A DNA stretch of 36,549 nucleotides. Source: a virus. The number at the start of each line of letters is the position of its first letter. The stretch's first letter is position 1. Location of the stretch: IMG/VR virus record IMGVR_UViG_3300031853_000132, positions 1-36,549 of that record. One strand, given 5' to 3'. This document shows, in pieces, positions 3,964 to 36,549 of this stretch. The notes beneath the pieces are model-generated. The model was not told where the DNA came from and did not search any database. It saw nothing but the letters and a program-made list of their open reading frames with translations. The translations under genes and the position numbers were made by a program.

Positions 3964-3990
3964 GCCCTGCACGATTGCGGGGCTTTTTTT
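3964..3990 (+). terminator. Intrinsic terminator (stem GCCCTGC/GCGGGGC, 6-nt loop, T7)
   Basis: The hairpin at 3964-3983 is followed by ttttttt at 3984-3990. Confidence 0.7.
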
Positions 3991-6583: not shown

Positions 6584-6949
6584 ATGGCGCAGAACTGGAG
6601 CACATACGTTAATACAAACTTTTACGGACAGGACGGCGGCTACAAGGACAACACCGAAAAAGTGGAGTTTAAGAGCGGGCGCACAGTCAAATATTTGAAA
6701 AACTCGCGCCCGAAAAAAACGCACGCCTTGAACCTGCGCTGCAAGGATAAAGGCACCGTAAAGGTTGACGGGAAAACCGAGTTTGAATGGCTTTTGTACT
6801 GGTACGAAAACACAGCCAAAAGCGGCACCGTTCCGATTTACTTAACGGACATTATAACGGGCAGCGGAACAAAGCAGTATCTTGTCACTATTGAGGGGTG
6901 GAGAGGCCAGCGCTTCAAAGAAGTAAACCTGCAACTTGAGGAAGTGTAA
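6584..6949 (+). CDS. Minor tail protein (lambda gpM-like position)
   Basis: 121 aa ORF, the first gene after the tape measure. GGGGGA SD. Confidence 0.4.
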   Translation: MAQNWSTYVNTNFYGQDGGYKDNTEKVEFKSGRTVKYLKNSRPKKTHALNLRCKDKGTVKVDGKTEFEWLLYWYENTAKSGTVPIYLTDIITGSGTKQYLVTIEGWRGQRFKEVNLQLEEV

Positions 6950-12685: not shown

Positions 12686-14353
12686 ATGGCTACATTAGAC
12701 TTAACACTGGCAGCATTGCGACTTGCGGGGCTTACAAACTTTACGCCCGAGTTCGGCACAAAGGAAGCCGACGGCGTAAGCGTAAGCACTGAAAACGTAT
12801 GCAAAGATATTATGCTGCCGTTTACATTCCAGCGCCCCGTACTCGTAAGCGAAACGAGCGACACTGGAAACATCGAAGCAACCCGCACGCTTGTTTTGAC
12901 AAACAGCGGAATTGTTTTGACACTTGGCCGCGCAACTTTTGCAGGCTGTAAAATCACAGTGCAGACGGGGTTCTCAAGCGGCAGCGCACAGGTTCGCTAC
13001 TTGACCGCCGCCAACACTTACGAAACCGTTACGCTTGCAGCTGGCAACAGCGTTGAGATTGTAAGCAACAGCGACCTTTATTTTTACAAACGGCTGCGTA
13101 TCAATAATTCAATCATCATCAACACAAACGAAAACTTGATACTTAACCGTCGTTATCTTTACCCGTCGGTTTTCCCAGTGGCAAACAGAAACAAAGATAC
13201 CGACTTTGTGGTACAGAATAACCAGCTTTACAGCAAGAACAGCGTATTTATTAGAGCGGGCGCAACCCTGCCGCCGTTCTACGTTGAAAACGTGGGGCTT
13301 TTGCAGTTCCACACAGAAAGCGACATAGAGCTTGACGTAGACGACTGCGACGACACTTGCACAGGGCTTGAAGCAGGAAAAGACTATTTTATTTATTTGA
13401 TTTACAGCCCGGCTTTATTCCCGAACGAAAAAGACAACCTCGGCTTTAAAATCAGTTTGAACGACCCCGACGGAATCAGCTTGTACGGTAATTCAGACAT
13501 TGCAGGCAGCGGCGCGAAACCGATTAAGGCATACGCAGAAGTTGACGGCGCGATTTTGAATGAACAAAACTGTATGTGTATAGGCGGCTTTCATACCGTG
13601 CTTGTAGACTGCGACGCACTCGCAGCAGGCCAGCAGGTGCACCCGCTCACAGATTATACAGCGGGAGCTATTCACCCGTTCACCGTTTGGGACTTGTACC
13701 ACCGCCCGAACGGTACAAGCGTAGGTATGCTTTACAATCCTTGTATAGACAAGTGGGGTTCTTTGTATCTGCTTTCAGAGCGTGCCTTTGACAAGACGGG
13801 CACAGCTGCAAGTTACGGCGGCACATACCCGAAAAACAATATAATTCTTATTTCAGCAGCAAACAAAGAGTTTGTAACTGGAACAACTACAGGCCGCGTT
13901 TTCCCTTGTTTGCGCGGCGAACAGATATTGAGCTTTCAGAAACAGCGCTTGCCGACTTTGCAGGAGTTCACAGCGTTTACACTTGGAAGCCCGCAGGGTT
14001 TGGCAATCAAAGGAGCTGCAAACCCCGTTACTACAGGCGGACACCTTGCAAGCGACAATACGCAGATTATTTCATACTGCGGTATGTTCGACGGCGTGGG
14101 CGTTCTTTGGCAGTGGGGACAGGAAAACGGCTACACTGTTTCTAGCGACTGGCAGACTAACTACAACACAACGCACGACAAAGACGTTAAAGGCGACGCT
14201 TTCAACCCGCAAACACGCGTCTTTTTTGGTGGCCGCTGGGACGATGGTTCGCACTGCGGTTCGCGGGCGTGCATTTGGAGCCATGGGGCATTGGAACTGT
14301 ATGACCATATCGGTTTTCGGGCGGTTGCCGAGCCACGCCATATTAAGGGGTAA
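12686..14353 (+). CDS. Tail fibre / receptor-binding protein with a C-terminal FGE/C-type-lectin-fold domain; DGR target
   Basis: 555 aa. The C-terminus FFGGRWDDGSHCGSRACIWSHGALELYDHIGFRAVAEP carries the GxW..GS.CGSR...GFR(A/V)V signature of the formylglycine-generating-enzyme-type lectin fold used by known DGR targets. It contains the VR. Confidence 0.85.
   Translation: MATLDLTLAALRLAGLTNFTPEFGTKEADGVSVSTENVCKDIMLPFTFQRPVLVSETSDTGNIEATRTLVLTNSGIVLTLGRATFAGCKITVQTGFSSGSAQVRYLTAANTYETVTLAAGNSVEIVSNSDLYFYKRLRINNSIIINTNENLILNRRYLYPSVFPVANRNKDTDFVVQNNQLYSKNSVFIRAGATLPPFYVENVGLLQFHTESDIELDVDDCDDTCTGLEAGKDYFIYLIYSPALFPNEKDNLGFKISLNDPDGISLYGNSDIAGSGAKPIKAYAEVDGAILNEQNCMCIGGFHTVLVDCDALAAGQQVHPLTDYTAGAIHPFTVWDLYHRPNGTSVGMLYNPCIDKWGSLYLLSERAFDKTGTAASYGGTYPKNNIILISAANKEFVTGTTTGRVFPCLRGEQILSFQKQRLPTLQEFTAFTLGSPQGLAIKGAANPVTTGGHLASDNTQIISYCGMFDGVGVLWQWGQENGYTVSSDWQTNYNTTHDKDVKGDAFNPQTRVFFGGRWDDGSHCGSRACIWSHGALELYDHIGFRAVAEPRHIKG
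14226..14331 (+). repeat. DGR variable repeat (VR)
   Basis: Aligns without gaps to 14559-14664 (offset 333). There are 10 mismatches, and all are at positions where the TR base is A. Weaker homology extends back to 14216. Confidence 0.9.
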
Positions 14354-14419
14354 GCACAACCAAGCGGACACCCTACTACGGGAAAAGGGGACAAGGGGGA
14401 ACAGCCCTACAACCCTACA

Positions 14420-14446
14420 GCGGATAGGCACTTTTAGCCTATCCGC
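14420..14446 (+). terminator. Perfect 10-bp hairpin (GCGGATAGGC / GCCTATCCGC, 7-nt loop) downstream of the VR
   Basis: Seen directly. There is no T-tract after it, so it may be a DGR-associated hairpin or an atypical terminator. Confidence 0.4.
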
Positions 14447-14449
14447 ATA

Positions 14450-14463
14450 AATGACTATATAAG
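14450..14463 (+). promoter_or_regulatory. Late-promoter-like motif AATGACTATATAAG upstream of the DGR template repeat
   Basis: Exact 10-mer, about 95 nt upstream of the TR and on the same strand as the TR and RT. Confidence 0.45.
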
Positions 14464-14558
14464 TATAAGCGGCAATCTTGGGTAGCGCGTGACAAAAAAA
14501 CAACCACGACCCGAAAAACGCCCGCCGAGATACTCACATCTTAGCGGGCGCGTCATTC

Positions 14559-14664
14559 TTGGTGGCAACTGGGACAATAGTTCGCACTGCGGTTCGCGGG
14601 CGTACAATTGGAACAATGGGGCATTGGAACTGAATGACAATATCGGTTTTCGGGCGGTTGCCGA
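14559..14664 (+). repeat. DGR template repeat (TR)
   Basis: Non-coding copy of the VR. Read in the VR frame, the variable positions are AAY/AGT/TAC codons (N, N, S, Y, N, N, N, N, N). Homology ends abruptly after 14664. Confidence 0.9.
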
Positions 14665-14840
14665 TACTGAATAAGATTGTAAGAACCCACTTACGCAATA
14701 TCTTTTTAGGCTGGCGCGTTATCCAGTGAGGGGAAACCCTGCAAAATTACTGAATGGGAAGCAATACTCGACTAGTAGGAAATCCGAAAGCCGTTTATTG
14801 ATATACTGGCAGATTGCCGCTATTTTTGGAGTACAACAAA

Positions 14841-16349
14841 GTGAAGCGATACGGTAACTTGTGGCAGCAAGTTTGTACATACGAAAACATAGACAAAGCT
14901 ATACGGCTGACTTTCAGAGGAAAGCGCCGTTATAATGAGTTTAAGGAAATCGAAAAGAACTTGCCGTATTATCGCGAACAGCTGCACGAAATGCTTGTAA
15001 ACGAAAGCTACACCTACGGCGAATATACAATAAAGCACATCTACGAGCCAAAGCCAAGAACGGCACTTGTAGCGCGGACTTTTCCCGACAGATTTTTACA
15101 CCACGCAATAGTAAACGTCGGCGAGCCGATATGGAGCAGCCGCACTTATTACCATTCTTACGCCTGCATTAAGGGCAAGGGCACGCACGCAGCACACAGA
15201 CAGATTGCTAAACTTGTGGCGGGTTATAATTACATTTGCCACTTGGATATACACAGCTTTTACGCCAGCATAGACCACGACGTATTAAAACAGGCATTGC
15301 GCAGGAAAATTAAAGACGTAAAATTTTTACGGTATTGCGACGGCCTTATAGACAATTACCCTACGCCCTGCGGTATTCCTATCGGAAACGCTACAAGCCC
15401 GTGGTTTGGAAATGTTGCACTTTGGGGCGTTGACGACTTCATAAAACACGAATTGAAATTGCCATACGTGCGCTATAACGACGATATGGTAATAGCCAGC
15501 AACGACAAAAGCGAACTGGTAAAAGCCCGTGAACGTGTGCGGGGTTATTTGTGGGAAACAATGGGGCTGACGTTTTCAAAGTCATACATCAAGAACACGC
15601 GGCAAGGTATAAACGCCGTCGGCTATCATTCATATAAAAACAGAAAAAGCGATACAGTAACAATTTTGAAACGCAAAACAGCGCGTAAAATCCGTTTATT
15701 TGTCGCCGAAAAAGCGACCACAGAAGCACTCAAGAGCGTTAAGAGCGCAAACAAGGTGCTGCGAGTGCTTACCAGCTACAACGGGATTTTGACAAATTGC
15801 AGCTGTAATCGGTTCATAGAAAAAATAGACTTTAATAACAAGCTGGAGCTTTTCAAAATCAAGGGGCACGAAATGATTAAACAAATCACAGAATATTATA
15901 ACAACGGAATACTGACGGGCGAAACGCTGACAATAGAAACAGTCGCGGGGCTGCATATTTACATAAGCGGTATTCAGCAGACGAAAAACAAATACTACCA
16001 CGAATATATTTGCGAGGAAAACGGCGAAAAGCTCAAGCAGACAAACGGCAAGAATCCGACGTTATCAGTAATTCAGTTTTATATCGCGGCCAAAGAACAT
16101 GGCAAAGAAGAAAAACAGATACGCGAAAGCGGAAAGTTATATAAAGTATTCAGCTCGGCTTATTCTATTACGAACGCAGCCGAAGCTATGAAAGATATTG
16201 ATTTTAAAAACGACCTTGTTTCTGCAATGTTCACAAAAAGCGGCAAACACCCCGAGCTTGTGCCATACGAAAGCGACTACGCGCAGAAAAAAGGCATAGA
16301 CACTGCGGGCGTATTGCAGAAGCTCGAAACAATCGCAGCCGCTAGTTAA
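14841..16349 (+). CDS. DGR reverse transcriptase with a ~170-aa C-terminal extension
   Basis: GTG start nine nt after GGAG, giving an N-terminus of KRYGNLWQQV. Carries an RT motif B-like PIGNATSPWFGN and the catalytic box RYNDD. The track ORF starts earlier, at a TTG at 14814. Confidence 0.85.
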   Translation: MKRYGNLWQQVCTYENIDKAIRLTFRGKRRYNEFKEIEKNLPYYREQLHEMLVNESYTYGEYTIKHIYEPKPRTALVARTFPDRFLHHAIVNVGEPIWSSRTYYHSYACIKGKGTHAAHRQIAKLVAGYNYICHLDIHSFYASIDHDVLKQALRRKIKDVKFLRYCDGLIDNYPTPCGIPIGNATSPWFGNVALWGVDDFIKHELKLPYVRYNDDMVIASNDKSELVKARERVRGYLWETMGLTFSKSYIKNTRQGINAVGYHSYKNRKSDTVTILKRKTARKIRLFVAEKATTEALKSVKSANKVLRVLTSYNGILTNCSCNRFIEKIDFNNKLELFKIKGHEMIKQITEYYNNGILTGETLTIETVAGLHIYISGIQQTKNKYYHEYICEENGEKLKQTNGKNPTLSVIQFYIAAKEHGKEEKQIRESGKLYKVFSSAYSITNAAEAMKDIDFKNDLVSAMFTKSGKHPELVPYESDYAQKKGIDTAGVLQKLETIAAAS

Positions 16350-17032
16350 TAGCCAAGTTCCATAAAGCGCACGCCACGCACGCGCCCCGTAATAATATTG
16401 TCGTTGATATAGTCGCGTATTTCAGCTCGCAGCGCAGCTTCATTCTTTGGCGAGAAGTCGGCGGTTGTTTTCTGCGCTATAAGGTTTTTAAGATAAACAG
16501 CTATTATGTCATTTTGCGCCGTTATTTCCGTAGCTGTTTGTTTATCATCAAGTTTGAAACCCAGCACAACGGAAAGCGAAACCTTGCCGCCGTCGCTTGT
16601 TTTGTTTTCGGCTGCTATTCCCTTAGACCATGATAAAACCTCACGATTTTGTGAATAATCACTGCTCGGAATTACTGCAAGGTTCAGCGGTATATCGTCA
16701 ATGTTTACGGAGTACGCCGCGCCGTTTGCTTTTGCTACCAGCTTCAAAGGCTTTACTTTGTATATATTGAACCGCTCGCCGTTCTTTTTTGTAAAATCTG
16801 TAAAATCAATAGAATTGCCGCCCGCTGGTAAATCGTCGGTGTAAAAATACTCACCGTTCAGCGTGTATGTGATTGCGGGAATATCTGCGCCCGTGTCATT
16901 GTTTACCCAGTAGAGCACAGGCGCGGCTTTTGGATCGCGTGAGTTATACTCAAGCGAAATATTAAGCTGCTTGGAACATGAGCAAAGCAGAGCCGCAAGA
17001 ATTAAAGATACAAAAATAGATTTTACTTTCAT
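16346..17032 (-). CDS. Lipoprotein with a FliL-like C-terminal domain (accessory gene)
   Basis: The ATG at 17032 follows GAGGTG. Signal peptide MKVKSIFVSLILAALLCSCS has a lipobox-like Cys. The C-terminal pattern (LSVVLGF...IIAVYLKNLI...LRAEIRDYIN...VRGVRFMELGY) resembles the FliL family (from memory). Confidence 0.55.
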   Translation of the reverse strand: MKVKSIFVSLILAALLCSCSKQLNISLEYNSRDPKAAPVLYWVNNDTGADIPAITYTLNGEYFYTDDLPAGGNSIDFTDFTKKNGERFNIYKVKPLKLVAKANGAAYSVNIDDIPLNLAVIPSSDYSQNREVLSWSKGIAAENKTSDGGKVSLSVVLGFKLDDKQTATEITAQNDIIAVYLKNLIAQKTTADFSPKNEAALRAEIRDYINDNIITGRVRGVRFMELGY

Positions 17033-17087
17033 GTTTACACCTCGCAAAAGATTATAACACGACTTTTCAAAAAGTGTGTAAAAAAAA

Positions 17088-18338
17088 TTAACCTGCGCGG
17101 ACAGTCGCCCGCCCGCTATGTTTATCAGCGTAAAAATATCTGTAAATTAAATCTTTTTCAACTGCTGGCATAGAATCGCCCACAATATCGCAAAGCGGTT
17201 CGGCAAGCTCGATGGGGTAATACTTGCCGCCGATATAAGCCCGCAGCCCGTAACGCTCGGACAAACACAGGGTAAACGAAACGCAAGCGGCGCGAGCTGT
17301 AAGCAGATTAAACTTGTAACCGTGATAAATAAAGCTGCCGTTTGCTCGGGTTTTCTTTTCGCAGCGAACAGAAAAAAGAAAGTCAAAATCTTTGACGGCT
17401 GGCGGGTTTTGCCAGTGCAGCTCGGAATCCTGCGCAGAAACGGAAAAACGGGCGTTAAATCCCTCGACGAAATCGGCAAGAAAAGCGTTTGCTTTTTCGA
17501 TAGTGTCGATTTTTAAGAAGCGGAAAATATAAGGCAATCGGCCTTGCAGCGTTTGCCATAGTCGCTCGATACGCCCTTTTGCCTGCGGGCTATAAGCTGC
17601 AATCAATTCTATGTTTAATTCTTGGCAGGTTTTCTGCCATTGCGTTTGTGCTTTTTCCGCGCCTGCTAATTGCTCCTCAAGAGTTGCGCCACGGTTCACA
17701 AAAAAGCAGCTGGATCTATCCGAGTAAATCGCCCGCGGCAGCTTTCCGCCCGTTCGCTCGAACACTTGAAAAAGCAGCTGGTAATAGCCCAGCAAACATT
17801 CATTTTCGCAGAAATACAAAGCTACTACTTTGTGCGTTGCGTCGTCGATTGCACCGTGCAAACAAACTTTGTGGCCGTTCATAAACCAGTTATGGCTTGA
17901 ACCGTCAATCTGTATTAAGTCGCCCTCGTTTGGTCGTTCGGAGCGCGGCAGGTGCAGTTTTTTTTCGCGTACAGGAATACGAGCACGCGGCGAAACAATA
18001 CCAGCACCCGAAAGCGCATTGTAAACAGTGGCATAAGAGGGCACTTTTTTATAGTGCAGATAGTCGGCGCAATCGTCGCGAAAAGAAGCAAACGGGGTGC
18101 CGCTGAACTGCTCATAATCTGCGACAATCTTTGCAGAATCGTATTGTTTATTCTTTGGAGTGCGCCCAGTGTTGCCGTGAATAAAGATTGAATCGCCGTA
18201 TTTTCTGTAACGATTTTTTAATCGCGTGACAGAATACGGCGCTATCCCGATAGCTTTTGCAGCTTTACGGACTGAGATTTTACCAGCGCAGCACATCGGT
18301 ATATACTGCATTTTCTTTGTGTGTAACTCGTAATTCAC
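17088..18338 (-). CDS. DDE (rve/integrase-core) transposase with N-terminal HTH, IS481/ISNCY-like
   Basis: 416 aa. HTH region ISVRKAAKAIGIAPYSVTRLKNRY. Candidate catalytic residues in IQIDGSSH, IYSDRSS and KGRIERLW. Confidence 0.75.
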   Translation of the reverse strand: MNYELHTKKMQYIPMCCAGKISVRKAAKAIGIAPYSVTRLKNRYRKYGDSIFIHGNTGRTPKNKQYDSAKIVADYEQFSGTPFASFRDDCADYLHYKKVPSYATVYNALSGAGIVSPRARIPVREKKLHLPRSERPNEGDLIQIDGSSHNWFMNGHKVCLHGAIDDATHKVVALYFCENECLLGYYQLLFQVFERTGGKLPRAIYSDRSSCFFVNRGATLEEQLAGAEKAQTQWQKTCQELNIELIAAYSPQAKGRIERLWQTLQGRLPYIFRFLKIDTIEKANAFLADFVEGFNARFSVSAQDSELHWQNPPAVKDFDFLFSVRCEKKTRANGSFIYHGYKFNLLTARAACVSFTLCLSERYGLRAYIGGKYYPIELAEPLCDIVGDSMPAVEKDLIYRYFYADKHSGRATVRAG

Positions 18339-18384: not shown

Positions 18385-18410
18385 ACAAAATGGAACAATT
18401 GGAACACTTG
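18385..18410. repeat. Left arm of a 26-bp inverted repeat (ACAAAATGGAACAATTGGAACACTTG)
   Basis: The reverse complement matches 18538-18563 at 25 of 26 positions. Contains two GGAACA boxes. Confidence 0.85.
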
Positions 18411-18537
18411 CTCCATTTGTCCCACGTGTTCCATTGTAAAAAACAGCGTATTTTTAACGCATTTTTGCACGCGCGTTAAACGCTGCGCCCCGTAAAAACC
18501 GCCCCTTGTAAATCCTTATAGTATATAGACTTTGGAA

Positions 18538-18563
18538 CAAGTGTTCCAAATGTTCCATTTTGT
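18538..18563. repeat. Right arm of a 26-bp inverted repeat (CAAGTGTTCCAAATGTTCCATTTTGT)
   Basis: See the left arm. An extra TGTTCCATTG box lies at 18427-18436. Confidence 0.85.
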
Positions 18564-18569
18564 CGCTAT

Positions 18570-18617
18570 GTATATGTATTTGTATATGTATATGTATTTG
18601 TATATATATAATATATA
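18570..18617. repeat. AT-rich tandem repeat: 18-bp unit GTATATGTATTTGTATAT x2, then an (AT)n tract
   Basis: Units at 18570-18587 and 18588-18605 are identical and are followed by atataatatata. Confidence 0.85.
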
Positions 18618-18718
18618 GGCGCATTGCTGCGCCCGCCCTGCGTTGAGGAACTGCGGCCAGCTTCTTTTTTTTCGGGGCGGCATTATCGGCAAGAAATAAA
18701 AAATATTTAATTTAGCGC

Positions 18719-18748
18719 TTGACAGATTTTAAAAAACGGCGCTATAAT
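18719..18748 (+). promoter_or_regulatory. Consensus sigma70-type promoter (TTGACA, 18 nt, TATAAT) with an AT-rich UP-like tract
   Basis: TTGACA at 18719-18724 and TATAAT at 18743-18748. The upstream tract aagaaataaaaaatatttaattta is A/T rich. Confidence 0.7.
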
Positions 18749-18754
18749 CAAAAT

Positions 18755-18977
18755 ATCAGCGGAAACAAGCCGCTGCATATCTTGGGTGTACACCTTTTCA
18801 AATCAATGTTGACAGTATCAACATTAAGCAAAAAAGTGCACACCAAGCAAACGAACGGCTACTTTTTGGTCTGTTGAGTAGCCGCTTGTTTCGGTACGAG
18901 CGACTATTTTACGGTAACTCGTAAATCAAAACCCGCAACGGATAACAGACCAATCCGAAGCGGGTTTTATTTTTTTT
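18755..18977 (+). ncRNA. Structured non-coding leader / candidate regulatory RNA (~220 nt)
   Basis: No ORF is present. It has several hairpins (CAGCGG/CCGCTG, AATGTTGA/TCAACATT nested within GGTGTACAC/GTGCACACC, CGGCTACT/AGTAGCCG, TACGAG/CTCGTA). A 9-nt long-range complement (GAAACAAGC / GCTTGTTTC) is also present. It ends in a terminator. Confidence 0.4.
18928..18977 (+). terminator. Intrinsic terminator 15 nt upstream of the first early gene
   Basis: AAAACCCGC pairs with GCGGGTTTT. An inner CGGA/TCCG stem is present, followed by tta and a run of eight T. Confidence 0.65.
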
Positions 18978-18992
18978 GCAAGAGGTCTGAAA

Positions 18993-19205
18993 ATGGCAAA
19001 AAGGAACACCAGCAACAACCCGCTTTTTCGGCAAATCCGAGAACTGGAAGAAAAGGCACTGAAAGCGGGAATCATCGGAAAAGACGACATCAAGACATCG
19101 GAAGCCATGCGCGAAGAAGCGTGGGAATGTTACTTAGTAGGTCGCGCAGAAAGGCTTGAAAAATCAATCAGAGAACACGAACTAGACACGGGGGCTGAAT
19201 CATGA
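18993..19205 (+). CDS. Hypothetical early protein (70 aa)
   Basis: ATG after AGAGG; first gene of the rightward early operon. Confidence 0.5.
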   Translation: MAKRNTSNNPLFRQIRELEEKALKAGIIGKDDIKTSEAMREEAWECYLVGRAERLEKSIREHELDTGAES

Positions 19206-19534
19206 GCGGCTACCCTATCGAACTAATCACCAAGAACAGGGCTGGAAAAATCAGCCACCAGCAATTCACAAAACAATTCAGCGGCTGGCAGAAATCGCGC
19301 GGCATTAACTACGACTGCAAGGGAACGGCGGACAGGCTGGGCGTTCATGTTGAGTACAGGGGGATAACGGCAACAATTCGCGACGGAAAATTAAGTTTTA
19401 TCACGGGCGACAATTGTGAGCCGAACAGCCCAACACGTTTTTTATGGCATGAAGCAAATTCTGTTTTTGAATTCCGCCGCAAGGTTGATTTTTCCCTCAA
19501 TGCGAGAAACGACGGGGGCGCGAAATGGAACTAG
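19202..19534 (+). CDS. Hypothetical early protein (110 aa)
   Basis: Coupled to the upstream ORF by ATGA overlap. Confidence 0.5.
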   Translation: MSGYPIELITKNRAGKISHQQFTKQFSGWQKSRGINYDCKGTADRLGVHVEYRGITATIRDGKLSFITGDNCEPNSPTRFLWHEANSVFEFRRKVDFSLNARNDGGAKWN

Positions 19535-19869
19535 AAGACATACCCGAGAGCGCCGTAGTTCAGCAGGTAAAAACAGTTATTAAAGCTACGGGTTTGAAAT
19601 TGCAGCGAATAAATACGGGCTGCTTTCAAATTGGCGAGGGACAGCACAGGCGTTTTGTAAAAACGGCAGAAGCTGGCACCTGCGATTTTGAGGGCTACGA
19701 CAACCACGGGCGATTTTTGGCGGTTGAGTGTAAGCGGCCAGTGGGCGGGAAATTGTCACCCGCACAGGAAGCGCGAATAAACGACATAAACCACAAGGGC
19801 GGCGTTGCCTTTGTAGTTCATAGCGGGGAAGAGTTCCTGCAAAAGCTTAAAGAAAGACATTGCATTTAA
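19525..19869 (+). CDS. VRR-NUC domain nuclease
   Basis: GTCDFEGY...FLAVECKRPVGGKLSPAQEARIN...GGVAFVV matches the D...E.K core and layout of VRR-NUC/resolvase-like nucleases. Confidence 0.65.
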   Translation: MELEDIPESAVVQQVKTVIKATGLKLQRINTGCFQIGEGQHRRFVKTAEAGTCDFEGYDNHGRFLAVECKRPVGGKLSPAQEARINDINHKGGVAFVVHSGEEFLQKLKERHCI

Positions 19870-19881
19870 GGGGGTGCGACA

Positions 19882-20430
19882 ATGTTTGAAAACGAAGAAG
19901 AAGAAATCGAGAAAGTGCCAACACCAGCGGCATTTTTAACACTGGTAAAACAACTTAACACCATTGCATACGAAAAAGAAGCCGTTTTGCAGTGCGAGGA
20001 AAGCGGCGCAAAGGTTGCGAACTTGCAGGGCTTTTTAGCTGGCGTGCGTAATTACAAAAAGGTTATGCACGACAACGGCTACGAGTTTGACAGCAAATAC
20101 GAGGGCACAACAGAGCGCGGCGTATCGTTCTTTGACGACGACGGTTGCGTTTTAGAGCTTGCCGAATTGAGAGTAATTAAAAGCGATATTGACGAGTTCA
20201 CGGAAACACAGACTTTTGCGCACTTTAAAGAAAAATGGCAGCAGGCAGTAGAAACAAAAAAAGACTGGTTATTTTACACCAGCGAAAAAGGACGCGACCT
20301 GCATTTTTGTAAGGGCTGGTATGAAGCCATGAAAACAATAGACGACATAATCGAAAGACTTGGGCGCGAGCTTGAAGCTGCGGAAAAAGACGCAGCAAAC
20401 AGCCTGCCTTTTGACGAAATCGGGCAATAA
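19882..20430 (+). CDS. Hypothetical early protein (182 aa)
   Basis: GGGGGTG SD. No recognisable motif. Confidence 0.5.
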   Translation: MFENEEEEIEKVPTPAAFLTLVKQLNTIAYEKEAVLQCEESGAKVANLQGFLAGVRNYKKVMHDNGYEFDSKYEGTTERGVSFFDDDGCVLELAELRVIKSDIDEFTETQTFAHFKEKWQQAVETKKDWLFYTSEKGRDLHFCKGWYEAMKTIDDIIERLGRELEAAEKDAANSLPFDEIGQ

Positions 20431-20432
20431 GG

Positions 20433-20483
20433 GGAACACGCGCAGAGGGCGCTTAAAGGCGGGTTCAAATCCCGCGTGTTTCA
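20433..20483 (+). other. tRNA-like minihelix (7-bp acceptor-like stem + canonical T-arm GCGGG-TTCAAAT-CCCGC + short GCGC hairpin)
   Basis: GGAACAC (20433-20439) pairs with GTGTTTC (20476-20482). The T-arm spans 20459-20475. At 51 nt it has no D arm or anticodon arm. Confidence 0.4.
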
Positions 20484-20538
20484 AGAGGTAAACAGCTGGC
20501 CAGCGTTCGACCTTAATAATTTTTACGAGGTGCGAAAA

Positions 20539-20712
20539 ATGAAAAATGCTATTTTGAAAATCTGCGAAAAGTTGCGCGGATATTCAGACACAGAGCCGTA
20601 TTTTGAAGTTACGGAGATCAAGCAGAACGACAACGGGACTTTTACAGTTACTTGTAAAGTCGTAGACCCAGCAGCAGAAGAACAGGGGGCAAAGAATGAA
20701 AGTAACGAATAA
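20539..20712 (+). CDS. Hypothetical small protein (57 aa)
   Basis: The internal ATG at 20539 follows GAGGTG. The upstream part of track ORF 20476.. overlaps the tRNA-like element. Confidence 0.45.
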   Translation: MKNAILKICEKLRGYSDTEPYFEVTEIKQNDNGTFTVTCKVVDPAAEEQGAKNESNE

Positions 20713-21556
20713 TTTACACCTGCCCGAAGCGTTTGTAAAAGCTGTAAGTGTTGAGCGCCACAATAAAGCTGGCAGCTATTCTGCAACAACCCTTAACAAG
20801 GGCACAAAAGAAGTAATACTGCAAGAGCGCCACTGGGACGAGTTCAGCGTAGACGCTGCCGACCAAGTATGGGCGACTTTTGGGACTGCGGTTCATGCAA
20901 TCATGGAAAAATACGAGGACGGCAATTTTCACGAAGAAACTTTCGACATTGCCGTATCAAATAGCCGTGTAACTGGAACAGTCGACAGCTACGACATGGA
21001 ACACGGAGTTATAAACGACTGGAAAACAGCAAGCGTTTACAAAGTAATGCACGGCGATTTTTCCGACTGGTACAAGCAGGGTATGACCTACGCATGGCTT
21101 TTGAAGCAGAACGGGCTTGACGTTCGCCATTGTAGATTTATTGCGCTTCTTAAAGACCACAGCAAGAGCAAGGCCAAGACAGACGCAAGCTACCCGCAAA
21201 GCCCAGTATTTACATACGAGTTTGACGTAACGCCCGAGGAATTGCAGCAGACGGGCGAAAGAATCTTAAACAAAGTAAAGGACATCGAAGCCGCCGAGCT
21301 TATGAGCGACGACGAAATAGCACCATGCACAGCCGAGGAACGCTGGGCAGACAGTGACAAGTACGCCGTAATGAAAAACGGCAGAAAAACAGCGGTGCGC
21401 GTTTTCGACCAGCTTGTAGACGCGGAAGCCTGCGCGGGTGCTTTGGGTAATTCCCACTACGTCGAGCACCGCCCCGCAGTGTCGAGAAAGTGCGGCGATT
21501 ATTGCTTGTGTAAAGATTTTTGCAGCTTTTACAAAAAAGAACAGGAGAACAAATAA
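20696..21556 (+). CDS. PD-(D/E)XK (Cas4/RecB-like) exonuclease with a C-terminal Cys cluster
   Basis: 286 aa. Contains GTVDSYD and INDWKT (D...D/E.K-like). One Cys lies upstream (IAPCTAEE) and three at the C-terminus (CGDYCLCKDFC). This matches the single-plus-triple Cys layout of Cas4-type Fe-S nucleases. Confidence 0.6.
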   Translation: MKVTNNLHLPEAFVKAVSVERHNKAGSYSATTLNKGTKEVILQERHWDEFSVDAADQVWATFGTAVHAIMEKYEDGNFHEETFDIAVSNSRVTGTVDSYDMEHGVINDWKTASVYKVMHGDFSDWYKQGMTYAWLLKQNGLDVRHCRFIALLKDHSKSKAKTDASYPQSPVFTYEFDVTPEELQQTGERILNKVKDIEAAELMSDDEIAPCTAEERWADSDKYAVMKNGRKTAVRVFDQLVDAEACAGALGNSHYVEHRPAVSRKCGDYCLCKDFCSFYKKEQENK

Positions 21557-33711: not shown

Positions 33712-33740
33712 GCCCTGCACACGTTGCGGGGCGTTTTTTT
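33712..33740 (+). terminator. Intrinsic terminator (same GCCCTGC/GCGGGGC stem as 3964-3990, T7)
   Basis: The hairpin at 33712-33732 is followed by g and ttttttt. Confidence 0.7.
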
Positions 33741-36196: not shown

Positions 36197-36549
36197 ATGA
36201 AACGTGATTTTTTAGAGGGTTTGAAACTTGAAGCCGACGTAATCGACAAGATTATGAGAGAAAACGGCAAGGACATCGAAAGCGCAAAAGCAAAGTTCGC
36301 CGATTATGACGACCTTAAAAAGCAGCTTGAAACTGCAACCGCAACGCTTGAGAAGTTCAAGGACTACGACCAAACAAAGGCAGATGTTGAAAAATACAAA
36401 GCCGAGCTGAAAAAATCGCAGGAAGAAAGCGCGGCAAAAATCGCCGCTATGGAGCGTTCGGGAAAAGTAAAAGATTACCTTTCGGGCAAAAAGTTTGTAA
36501 ACAAAATCACACAGGACGCAATCACCGCGAAAATGTGCGAAGCATTGGG
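36197..36549 (+). CDS. Scaffolding protein, 5' part (runs off the window and continues at 1-317 via the terminal overlap)
   Basis: ATG after AGGGAG. Coiled-coil Lys/Glu-rich sequence. The combined ORF is 180 aa. Confidence 0.6.
   Translation, partial: MKRDFLEGLKLEADVIDKIMRENGKDIESAKAKFADYDDLKKQLETATATLEKFKDYDQTKADVEKYKAELKKSQEESAAKIAAMERSGKVKDYLSGKKFVNKITQDAITAKMCEAL
36423..36549 (+). repeat. Terminal overlap copy 2 (identical to 1-127)
   Basis: Same 127-bp string as 1-127. Consistent with circular assembly or terminal redundancy. Confidence 0.95.

Follow-up and report, generated by a model that had tools for sequence, protein, structure and literature searches.

The promoter and leader region at positions 18691 to 18995 of IMG/VR virus record IMGVR_UViG_3300031853_000132 (36,549 nt, analyzed over its full length and called the window here) is the joint between both ends of a transposable temperate Treponema phage of ~36.4 kb in its circular form. 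At this joint, a consensus promoter on the right end meets a leader and an early operon on the left end. The leader contains a newly defined conserved RNA motif in which a hairpin loop is paired to the loop of a terminator and for which many natural compensatory variants exist. With reasonable though far from full confidence, we favor a model for the transposon-circle joint in which (i) early gene expression is coupled to DNA topology, (ii) a left-end terminator insulates the operon, and (iii) the loop pair controls read-through. The features of the joint and its promoter are as follows.

18691-18718, plus strand: A/T-rich UP-like tract, 82% A+T, conserved in relatives.
18719-18748, plus strand: outward-facing consensus promoter of the right end, consisting of TTGACA (18719-18724), an 18-nt spacer and TATAAT (18743-18748); 12/12 match.
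18781-18814, no strand: right terminal inverted repeat (IRR), ending ...TTGACA; imperfect inverted repeat of 18816-18847; a pair of integrated and joined forms diverges after TTGACA.
18815, no strand: junction spacer of 1 nt, G in the window; joined forms that barely differ elsewhere have G, A, C or T here.
18816-18847, no strand: left terminal inverted repeat (IRL), beginning TATCAACA...; unrelated host DNA lies directly left of TATCAACA at 13 loci.
17088-18338, minus strand: DDE transposase (ISNCY family) that mobilizes the phage; NCBIfam NF033594 at 311 bits versus a cut-off of 250, with rve and phrog_8463 matches.

The window begins and ends with the same 127 nt (1-127 and 36423-36549), an exact direct repeat that marks the assembly as circular, with 36,422 bp per unit. 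The right end of the phage comprises the window up to 18814 (promoter, hairpin 1 and IRR) and likewise carries the transposase gene, and the left end begins at 18816 (IRL, hairpins 3 and 4, terminator and early operon). Homology of integrated prophages to the window starts at ~18816, inside a long predicted hairpin, and joined forms carry ...TTGACA plus one nucleotide to the left of TATCAACA. Transposase protein P0049 was found in both states: integrated at loci L059 and L060, which lie inside bacterial contigs of 187 kb and 303 kb beside a host GGDEF-EAL gene, and joined at L061 and L062. The sequences of all four are identical through the promoter and up to ...CATTGTTGACA. After this point, host DNA follows in L059 and L060, and A or C, then TATCAACAACAGG..., hairpins 3 and 4, the terminator and GAGGTCTG-ATG follow in L061 and L062. 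Right ends flanked by host genes were also seen in T. pectinovorum (L057; genome UPSF01000001.1, near 919-920 kb) and at L058, L067, L068 and L077 to L080, the last four representing one phage at four different insertion sites. The spacer base is G, A, C or T in near-identical genomes, a pattern characteristic of junctions that originate by transposition and not by mutation. The phage thus has the hallmarks of a circle-forming DDE element: an rve transposase, terminal inverted repeats of which the right one finishes in CA-3′, and abutted ends with a short spacer. One joined form (L005/L022) has a 15-nt spacer (TATATTTTTTACGGA) between ...TTGACA and TATCAACA instead of the single nucleotide, which may reflect an imprecise junction with host flank. 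A pattern scan of IMG/VR for left ends of the L063 type returned chance matches only.

In integrated prophages, the promoter faces host DNA, host DNA lies upstream of the leader, and the promoter and the RNA core are ~36 kb apart at opposite ends. The arrangement of the two ends shows that a single RNA of ~223 nt, and access of the promoter to the early operon, would be possible only with the ends joined. Joined ends arise upon infection or excision, and also exist in tandem copies. The right end contributes the first ~60 nt of the transcript, with hairpin 1 and the IRR, and the early/late gene array of the left end yielded no promoter comparable to that of the right end.

A preliminary description, made from the letters and open reading frames (ORFs) of the window, had singled out this promoter as the best of its sigma-70 type in the window, preceded by an A/T-rich UP-like tract and with no further promoter after the terminator. 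All three statements were borne out. The -35 and -10 hexamers are spaced within the 16 to 18 nt of sigma-70-type promoters, the promoter is kept in relatives, and no other site across the 36.5 kb of the window scores 12/12; the remaining sites score at most 10/12 and occur at about the frequency of shuffled sequence. A plus-strand scan of 18749-20792 found no site of at least 9/12, the next one appearing only at 20793. Transcription would be predicted to start near 18755.

We then extended the comparison to distant relatives (33 to 66% transposase identity) gathered by an alignment-based scan. In these lineages, the right end stops at CTTGACA and is followed by one variable nucleotide and by a left-end -10 element (TAAAGT, TAAGAT or TATAAT) located exactly 17 nt after TTGACA, such that a junction-spanning promoter is present by sequence. 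The variable nucleotide is A, T or G in near-identical contigs of L097, L098, L101 and L103, and T or A in those of L110 and L111. The position of the junction in these split-promoter lineages rests on this nucleotide and on subterminal inverted repeats, integrated forms being outside the sample. Transcription in such lineages would start in the left end, and right-end RNA is absent. The counterpart in the window is TTGACA (18809-18814), 17 nt and AAAAGT (18832-18837) inside the IRL. AAAAGT is homologous to the split-promoter -10 element and, judged by its sequence, is a degenerate remnant of the split promoter. In place of the split promoter, the clade of the window has its complete promoter ~90 nt further inside the right end.

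The transcript predicted from the joined ends spans ~18755-18977 (~223 nt). It lacks any ORF preceded by a Shine-Dalgarno (SD) sequence, the longest ORFs being 13 to 31 codons, and has a minimum free energy of -74.9 kcal/mol (z = -6.25 versus shuffles); the left-end core by itself (18849-18981) folds with z = -4.87. These values, together with a conserved hairpin and U-tract, uphold the earlier view of an ORF-less structured RNA that ends in a terminator before the first early gene. Covariation was assessed across 19 distinct leaders for hairpin 3, hairpin 4 and the terminator stem, with slid alignments and 500 shuffles as controls. The features of the leader are listed here with the corresponding values.

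18757-18775, plus strand: hairpin 1 (right-end RNA), optional; a compensatory change from GCGG/CCGC to GCCG/CGGC occurs in L014, and the hairpin is missing in L023-type right ends.
18781-18847: long hairpin ("hairpin 2") from folding, identical with the abutted IRR and IRL.
18849-18891, plus strand: hairpin 3, whose loop carries seqA, TTGGTCTGTT (18866-18875); 11 of 14 pairs changed on both sides, 95% of cells paired.
18895-18923, plus strand: hairpin 4 (TACGAG...CTCGTA); pairing in 95.6% of cells with G-U variants counted, hardly any variation within the clade.
18928-18977, plus strand: intrinsic terminator with a hairpin at 18928-18968 (-18.8 kcal/mol) and a U-tract at 18965-18977; 8 of 13 stem pairs changed on both sides.
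18982-18995, plus strand: ribosome-binding site (RBS) box GAGGTCTG (18982-18989) and ATG (18993) of the first early gene; the stretch GGTCTG complements the terminator loop.

Across hairpin 3, hairpin 4 and the terminator, 95.3% of cells are paired, compared with 33 to 44% in slid controls; 24 pairs changed on both sides, none of the 500 shuffles scored as high, and G-U pairs are consistent with the plus strand only. Structural covariation in homologues, which had been put forward as a check on the RNA, was thus found. An Rfam scan, put forward as another, gave no family match: at the gathering score and at E ≤ 10, only chance microRNA and long noncoding RNA matches appeared, and no riboswitch, C4, IsrK or antiterminator family. 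At least five hairpins had been proposed, and five were folded, one of which is a DNA feature. Comparison with integrated forms identifies "hairpin 2" as the IRR/IRL junction, and we reject it as an RNA element. Its covariation reflects coevolving transposase sites and is therefore no evidence for RNA structure. The proposed pairing of a 5′ segment (GAAACAAGC, 18762-18770) with a distal one (GCTTGTTTC, 18884-18892) is present in the window, but it is not conserved; the loop of hairpin 1 is variable (ACATCGCC, ATAATCAC or ACAAAAAC) or absent in relatives, and this pairing was rejected as a conserved switch. The terminator is intrinsic by sequence, with a hairpin followed by UUUUAUUUUUUUU and compensatory changes in the stem, and directly precedes the first RBS in every lineage examined. 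It lies where it had been placed (18928-18977), but the 15 nt previously counted from its end to the SD lead to the ATG instead, the U-tract ending 4 nt before the RBS box. Two near-identical strong terminator hairpins also occur on the plus strand inside the gene array, at 3964-3983 and 33712-33732 (GCCCTGCAC...TTGCGGGGC plus a T-run), implying extra promoters or antitermination.

The 9-nt apical loop region of the terminator carries seqB, AACAGACCAA (18944-18953), of which seqA in the loop of hairpin 3 is the exact complement; close relatives have TTGGTGTGTT and AACACACCAA at the two positions. The loop-loop helix is 98.4% paired. Each of 13 representative lineages, which together make up 12 sequence types, carries an exact complement of its terminator loop 38 to 76 nt upstream. 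This complement is 8 to 9 nt long in 12 of the 13 lineages and 6 nt in L113; matches as long as those observed arise in shuffled sequence at a frequency of ≤0.028. Matches to the terminator loop downstream of the hairpin reach only 3 to 6 nt in the same 13 lineages. The terminator loop is mostly 9 nt with the form AACAnnnCA, and its complement in the other loop is the only RNA feature conserved across the whole family. In the subclade of the window, the RBS box is GAGGTCTG or GAGGTGTG and tracks the loop type (C-type or G-type) whatever gene lies downstream. Pairing between RBS and terminator loop amounts to 91%, with cognate duplexes at -10.6 and -11.2 kcal/mol and noncognate duplexes at -4.2 and -7.6 kcal/mol. 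The upstream complement of seqB in hairpin 3, seqB itself and its downstream complement at the RBS all covary between C-type and G-type relatives.

Two relatives, L012 (~6600-6900, minus strand) and L029 (5900-6120, plus strand), have independently and precisely lost the inverted repeat pair and have no transposase nearby; they are probably nonintegrating derivatives. Both retain the promoter, hairpins 3 and 4, the terminator and the RBS. Because the leader is kept without the repeats, it works as a unit independent of the joint.

These parts would fit together as follows. Integration by itself would silence the lytic genes, and excision or infection would turn them on. By analogy with T1 of Tn916, the left-end terminator would insulate the promoterless operon from host read-in. 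The loop of hairpin 3 could capture the terminator loop during transcription, delaying or weakening terminator formation and so setting the level of read-through, and a free terminator loop could mask the RBS of the first gene in the subclade of the window only. The conserved loop-to-loop pairing probably gates the leader terminator. The terminated product of ~223 nt would be a by-product or a feedback RNA, and a role for it in trans, as feedback or as type-specific immunity among circular copies, is possible. Dependence of the early operon on regulated read-through had been suggested before. Transcription from the promoter must indeed pass a conserved terminator.

Several observations weigh against this model. 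Integrated left and right ends were read at separate loci, not as a pair from a single prophage. Where transcription starts, how efficiently it terminates and how much of it reads through are predictions from sequence. The terminator is strong (-18.8 kcal/mol, 8/9 U), and the polymerase would have to pass it. Thermodynamic folding of circle and read-in transcripts gave no consistent difference, and none for the window. Only some variants show significant complementarity between IRL and seqA; P is <0.001 in the L023 type and 0.30 in the window. A match to the RBS occurs in a single subclade and is lacking in L021, L063, L065, L091 and every distant lineage. A Pfam search of ~35 ORFs found no repressor, but one may be encoded among the unannotated small ORFs, and a weak promoter may lie within the early operon. 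A relay, in which the IRL is unpaired only in read-in transcripts and sequesters seqA, was set aside on a duplex test that was not significant in the window and on inconsistent equilibrium folding; we keep it as a possibility.

The preliminary description had also offered an immunity RNA of the P4 CI or P1/P7 c4 type, and we consider an account along these lines unlikely, although much of the loop evidence suits it. In such a scheme, a trans-acting antisense RNA or an IsrK-like dual small RNA/mRNA, consisting of the terminated leader or a processed terminator hairpin, would pair with the hairpin 3 loop and the RBS of other leaders and confer lineage-specific immunity or copy-number feedback. 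An abundant discrete RNA is expected from a strong promoter with a strong terminator, and the covariation of the three sites between C-type and G-type leaders, the 12 loop specificity types within conserved flanks (AACAnnnCA) and noncognate RBS duplexes 3 to 7 kcal/mol weaker than cognate ones are all in its favor, as is the pairing of P4 CI with a seqA upstream and a seqC downstream of itself (PMC4825925). What stands of the earlier suggestion is this internal complementarity up- and downstream. However, the promoter and the RNA core lie ~36 kb apart when integrated, which makes a constitutive immunity RNA in lysogens unlikely; with no promoter upstream of the core, lysogens should not make the RNA. 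Moreover, seqA and seqB are located on one RNA and should anneal to each other before any other partner (-15 to -17 kcal/mol), the RBS site is missing in most lineages, and no Rfam match to C4 or IsrK was obtained. A cis-acting processive antiterminator like HK022 put, Tn916 canT or EAR, in which hairpins 3 and 4 or the right-end RNA modify the polymerase to pass the leader terminator and later ones, strikes us as quite improbable. It would account for one dominant promoter serving ~34 kb of co-oriented genes and for the two near-identical strong plus-strand terminators in the array (3964-3983 and 33712-33732); hairpin 4 is nearly invariant within the clade, and canT of Tn916 is located between promoter and joint. 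Yet the right-end RNA is not conserved (hairpin 1 is optional) and does not exist in split-promoter lineages, hairpin 4 is not conserved outside the clade, known antiterminator families in Rfam gave no match, and a processive element past the joint could not tell phage transcripts from host read-in.

The set of 6- to 10-nt motifs (seqA, inverted seqB and the RBS copy) might instead be DNA sites for a phage protein acting as operator or roadblock, with the covariation reflecting changed protein specificity. All matches are perfect Watson-Crick pairs with no G-U inside the loop-loop helix, and repeat sets that differ by lineage are present upstream of the promoter as well. This explanation is nevertheless very improbable: the motifs lie exactly in the loops of hairpins with compensatory stem changes and strand-specific G-U pairs, they are 110 to 230 nt downstream of the start rather than over the promoter, and their spacing varies (38 to 76 nt) while the 9-nt loop size is conserved. 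Least credible of all is a metabolite-sensing riboswitch governing read-through. A structured leader does lie directly upstream of a terminator, but there is no Rfam match even at E ≤ 10 and no conserved multihelix junction or invariant unpaired core, only hairpin loops being conserved across lineages.

A stronger version of the topology-coupled model is tentative, and we regard it as doubtful in its entirety. It posits repressor-free lysogeny: integration would split the promoter from the operon, or the promoter itself; the guard terminator would block host read-in; and the covarying loop pair, with its 12 types, would act as an RNA lock that senses leader concentration or transcript origin, in trans between coresident genomes as an immunity or copy-control specificity. 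If the topology-coupled reading is right, a widespread group of Treponema phages of the gut and rumen would run their lysis-lysogeny switch by DNA topology and not by a CI-type repressor. Under the topology model, induction would amount to transposase-driven circle formation. The natural compensatory loop variants are ready for mutational tests. For genome scans, the region carries the caution that a junction of terminal inverted repeats can mimic RNA structure.

Precedents for RNA structure and expression that depend on integration state or transcript origin, as proposed here, include retroregulation by sib of phage lambda and fold-back inhibition in IS10. The molecular parts differ from those of the phage leader: sib acts at the 3′ end via RNase III, and IS10 masks the RBS of its transposase. 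The closest functional analogues of the phage are Tn916 and the junction promoters of insertion sequence (IS) minicircles, with P4 CI as the nearest RNA logic. For Tn916, experiments showed that Porf7 at one end transcribes the conjugation genes only once the element is circular and that terminator T1 at the other end insulates them from host promoters (Wirachman & Grossman 2024, PMC11658703). The phage likewise has promoter and operon at opposite ends of the integrated element, with expression predicted only after circularization, an intrinsic left-end terminator directly before the first gene (for which an insulator function is suggested by analogy), and insertion at many sites. In contrast, Tn916 transfers by conjugation and relies on a tyrosine recombinase, and the phage is tailed and carries a DDE transposase. 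Tn916 also has a 452-bp antiterminator RNA upstream of its joint, whereas the phage has no conserved right-end RNA and has a loop-loop pairing in the left-end leader instead.

Like the minicircles of IS2 (Pjunc), IS911 and IS30, the phage joint consists of abutted terminal inverted repeats with a 1-nt spacer (PMC3299598). In IS2, the 17 bp required between the promoter hexamers result from a 1-bp spacer at the junction (PMC3299598); the distant relatives resemble it in that their -35 is the right-end terminus, their -10 lies in the left end, and the 17-nt spacing depends on the 1-nt junction spacer. However, the IS junction promoter drives the transposase, and the phage promoter drives the early operon, with the transposase transcribed the opposite way. 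The clade of the window departs further from the IS minicircles in having a complete promoter ~90 nt inside the right end and a degenerate split promoter (AAAAGT). As in IS110/IS1111 elements with their seekRNA (bridge RNA; PMC11187229), a structured noncoding RNA arises from a promoter that is functional only with joined ends. Those elements, in contrast, have DEDD recombinases and an RNA that guides target choice, and the phage RNA leads into mRNA. We rejected IS110-like RNA-guided targeting for the phage: its transposase is of the DDE type, and its insertion flanks share no motif, nor any matching the loops.

The resemblance to P4 CI (PMC4825925) and P1/P7 c4 lies in an antisense segment with complements up- and downstream on its own transcript, in a downstream complement at the translation start, and in specificity types that differ by compensated changes. 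Unlike those RNAs, the phage leader has no sequence or structure homology to them (no Rfam match) and no prophage-resident promoter, and its downstream site occurs in one subclade only. IScream phages are likewise temperate tailed phages mobilized by an IS-type DDE transposase, with detectable circular forms (PMC12823448). They carry an IS30 transposase with IS copies at both ends, whereas the transposase of the window phage is ISNCY/IS481-like, and the paper describes no promoter, leader or terminator logic (PMC12823448). A literature search yielded no description of promoter-operon coupling by joined ends for tailed phages, nor of this phage group or leader. The main interest lies in the topology-based control of phage early genes proposed here and in the richly covarying loop pair; the logic of such control was already known from Tn916 and IS minicircles.

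Beyond the joint, the window is the genome of a tailed phage in which nearly all genes, including the structural genes and a diversity-generating retroelement (DGR), lie on the plus strand. Its gene content includes terminase, amidase, SSB, nucleases and a DnaC/IstB-like ATPase. A blastn search against GenBank phages gave no match, and a search for tRNA and tmRNA found none. Relatives come from rumen and gut metagenomes and from metagenome-assembled genomes and genomes of Treponema, their hosts. Only two genes are on the minus strand, a 233-aa ORF and the 416-aa DDE transposase; homologues of the latter are annotated "ISNCY family transposase" in Treponema genomes, and an exact-sequence look-up of the window's own transposase returned no record. 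The 233-aa ORF (16346-17047, minus strand), located beside the transposase gene, has only a weak FliL-like C-terminal match. The same gene is found in the T. pectinovorum prophage (L057), and YjcQ-type winged-helix genes occupy its position in other relatives. On the minus strand, hairpin 1 (18757-18775) followed by ATATTTTGAT scores as a terminator-like site; this site faces transcription that enters at the right end and might shield the transposase gene against host transcription.

The DGR is complete (12686-16349), with a variable repeat (VR) at 14216-14331, a template repeat (TR) at 14549-14664 and the reverse transcriptase at 14814-16349. VR is at the 3′ terminus of an ORF of 555 aa that carries an Mtd-like domain, and 11 of the 12 differences between TR and VR fall at TR adenines. 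Since this reverse transcriptase is part of a DGR that has a TR/VR pair of its own, a role for the leader RNA in a retron, group II intron or defense-associated reverse transcriptase (DRT) system is unlikely. Upstream of the promoter, iteron-like TGGAACA repeats lie within 18385-18618, with 31-nt inverted arms at 18385-18415 and 18533-18563. After the arms come a tandem repeat of 18 nt with GTATAT/GTATTT (18567-18618) and then a G+C hairpin (18618-18633). This layout is kept in all relatives, with a lineage-specific repeat word (ATGCAAAT, TTCGTAAT or ACGACCA), and the region could be a candidate replication origin or a set of binding sites for a regulator or the transposase.

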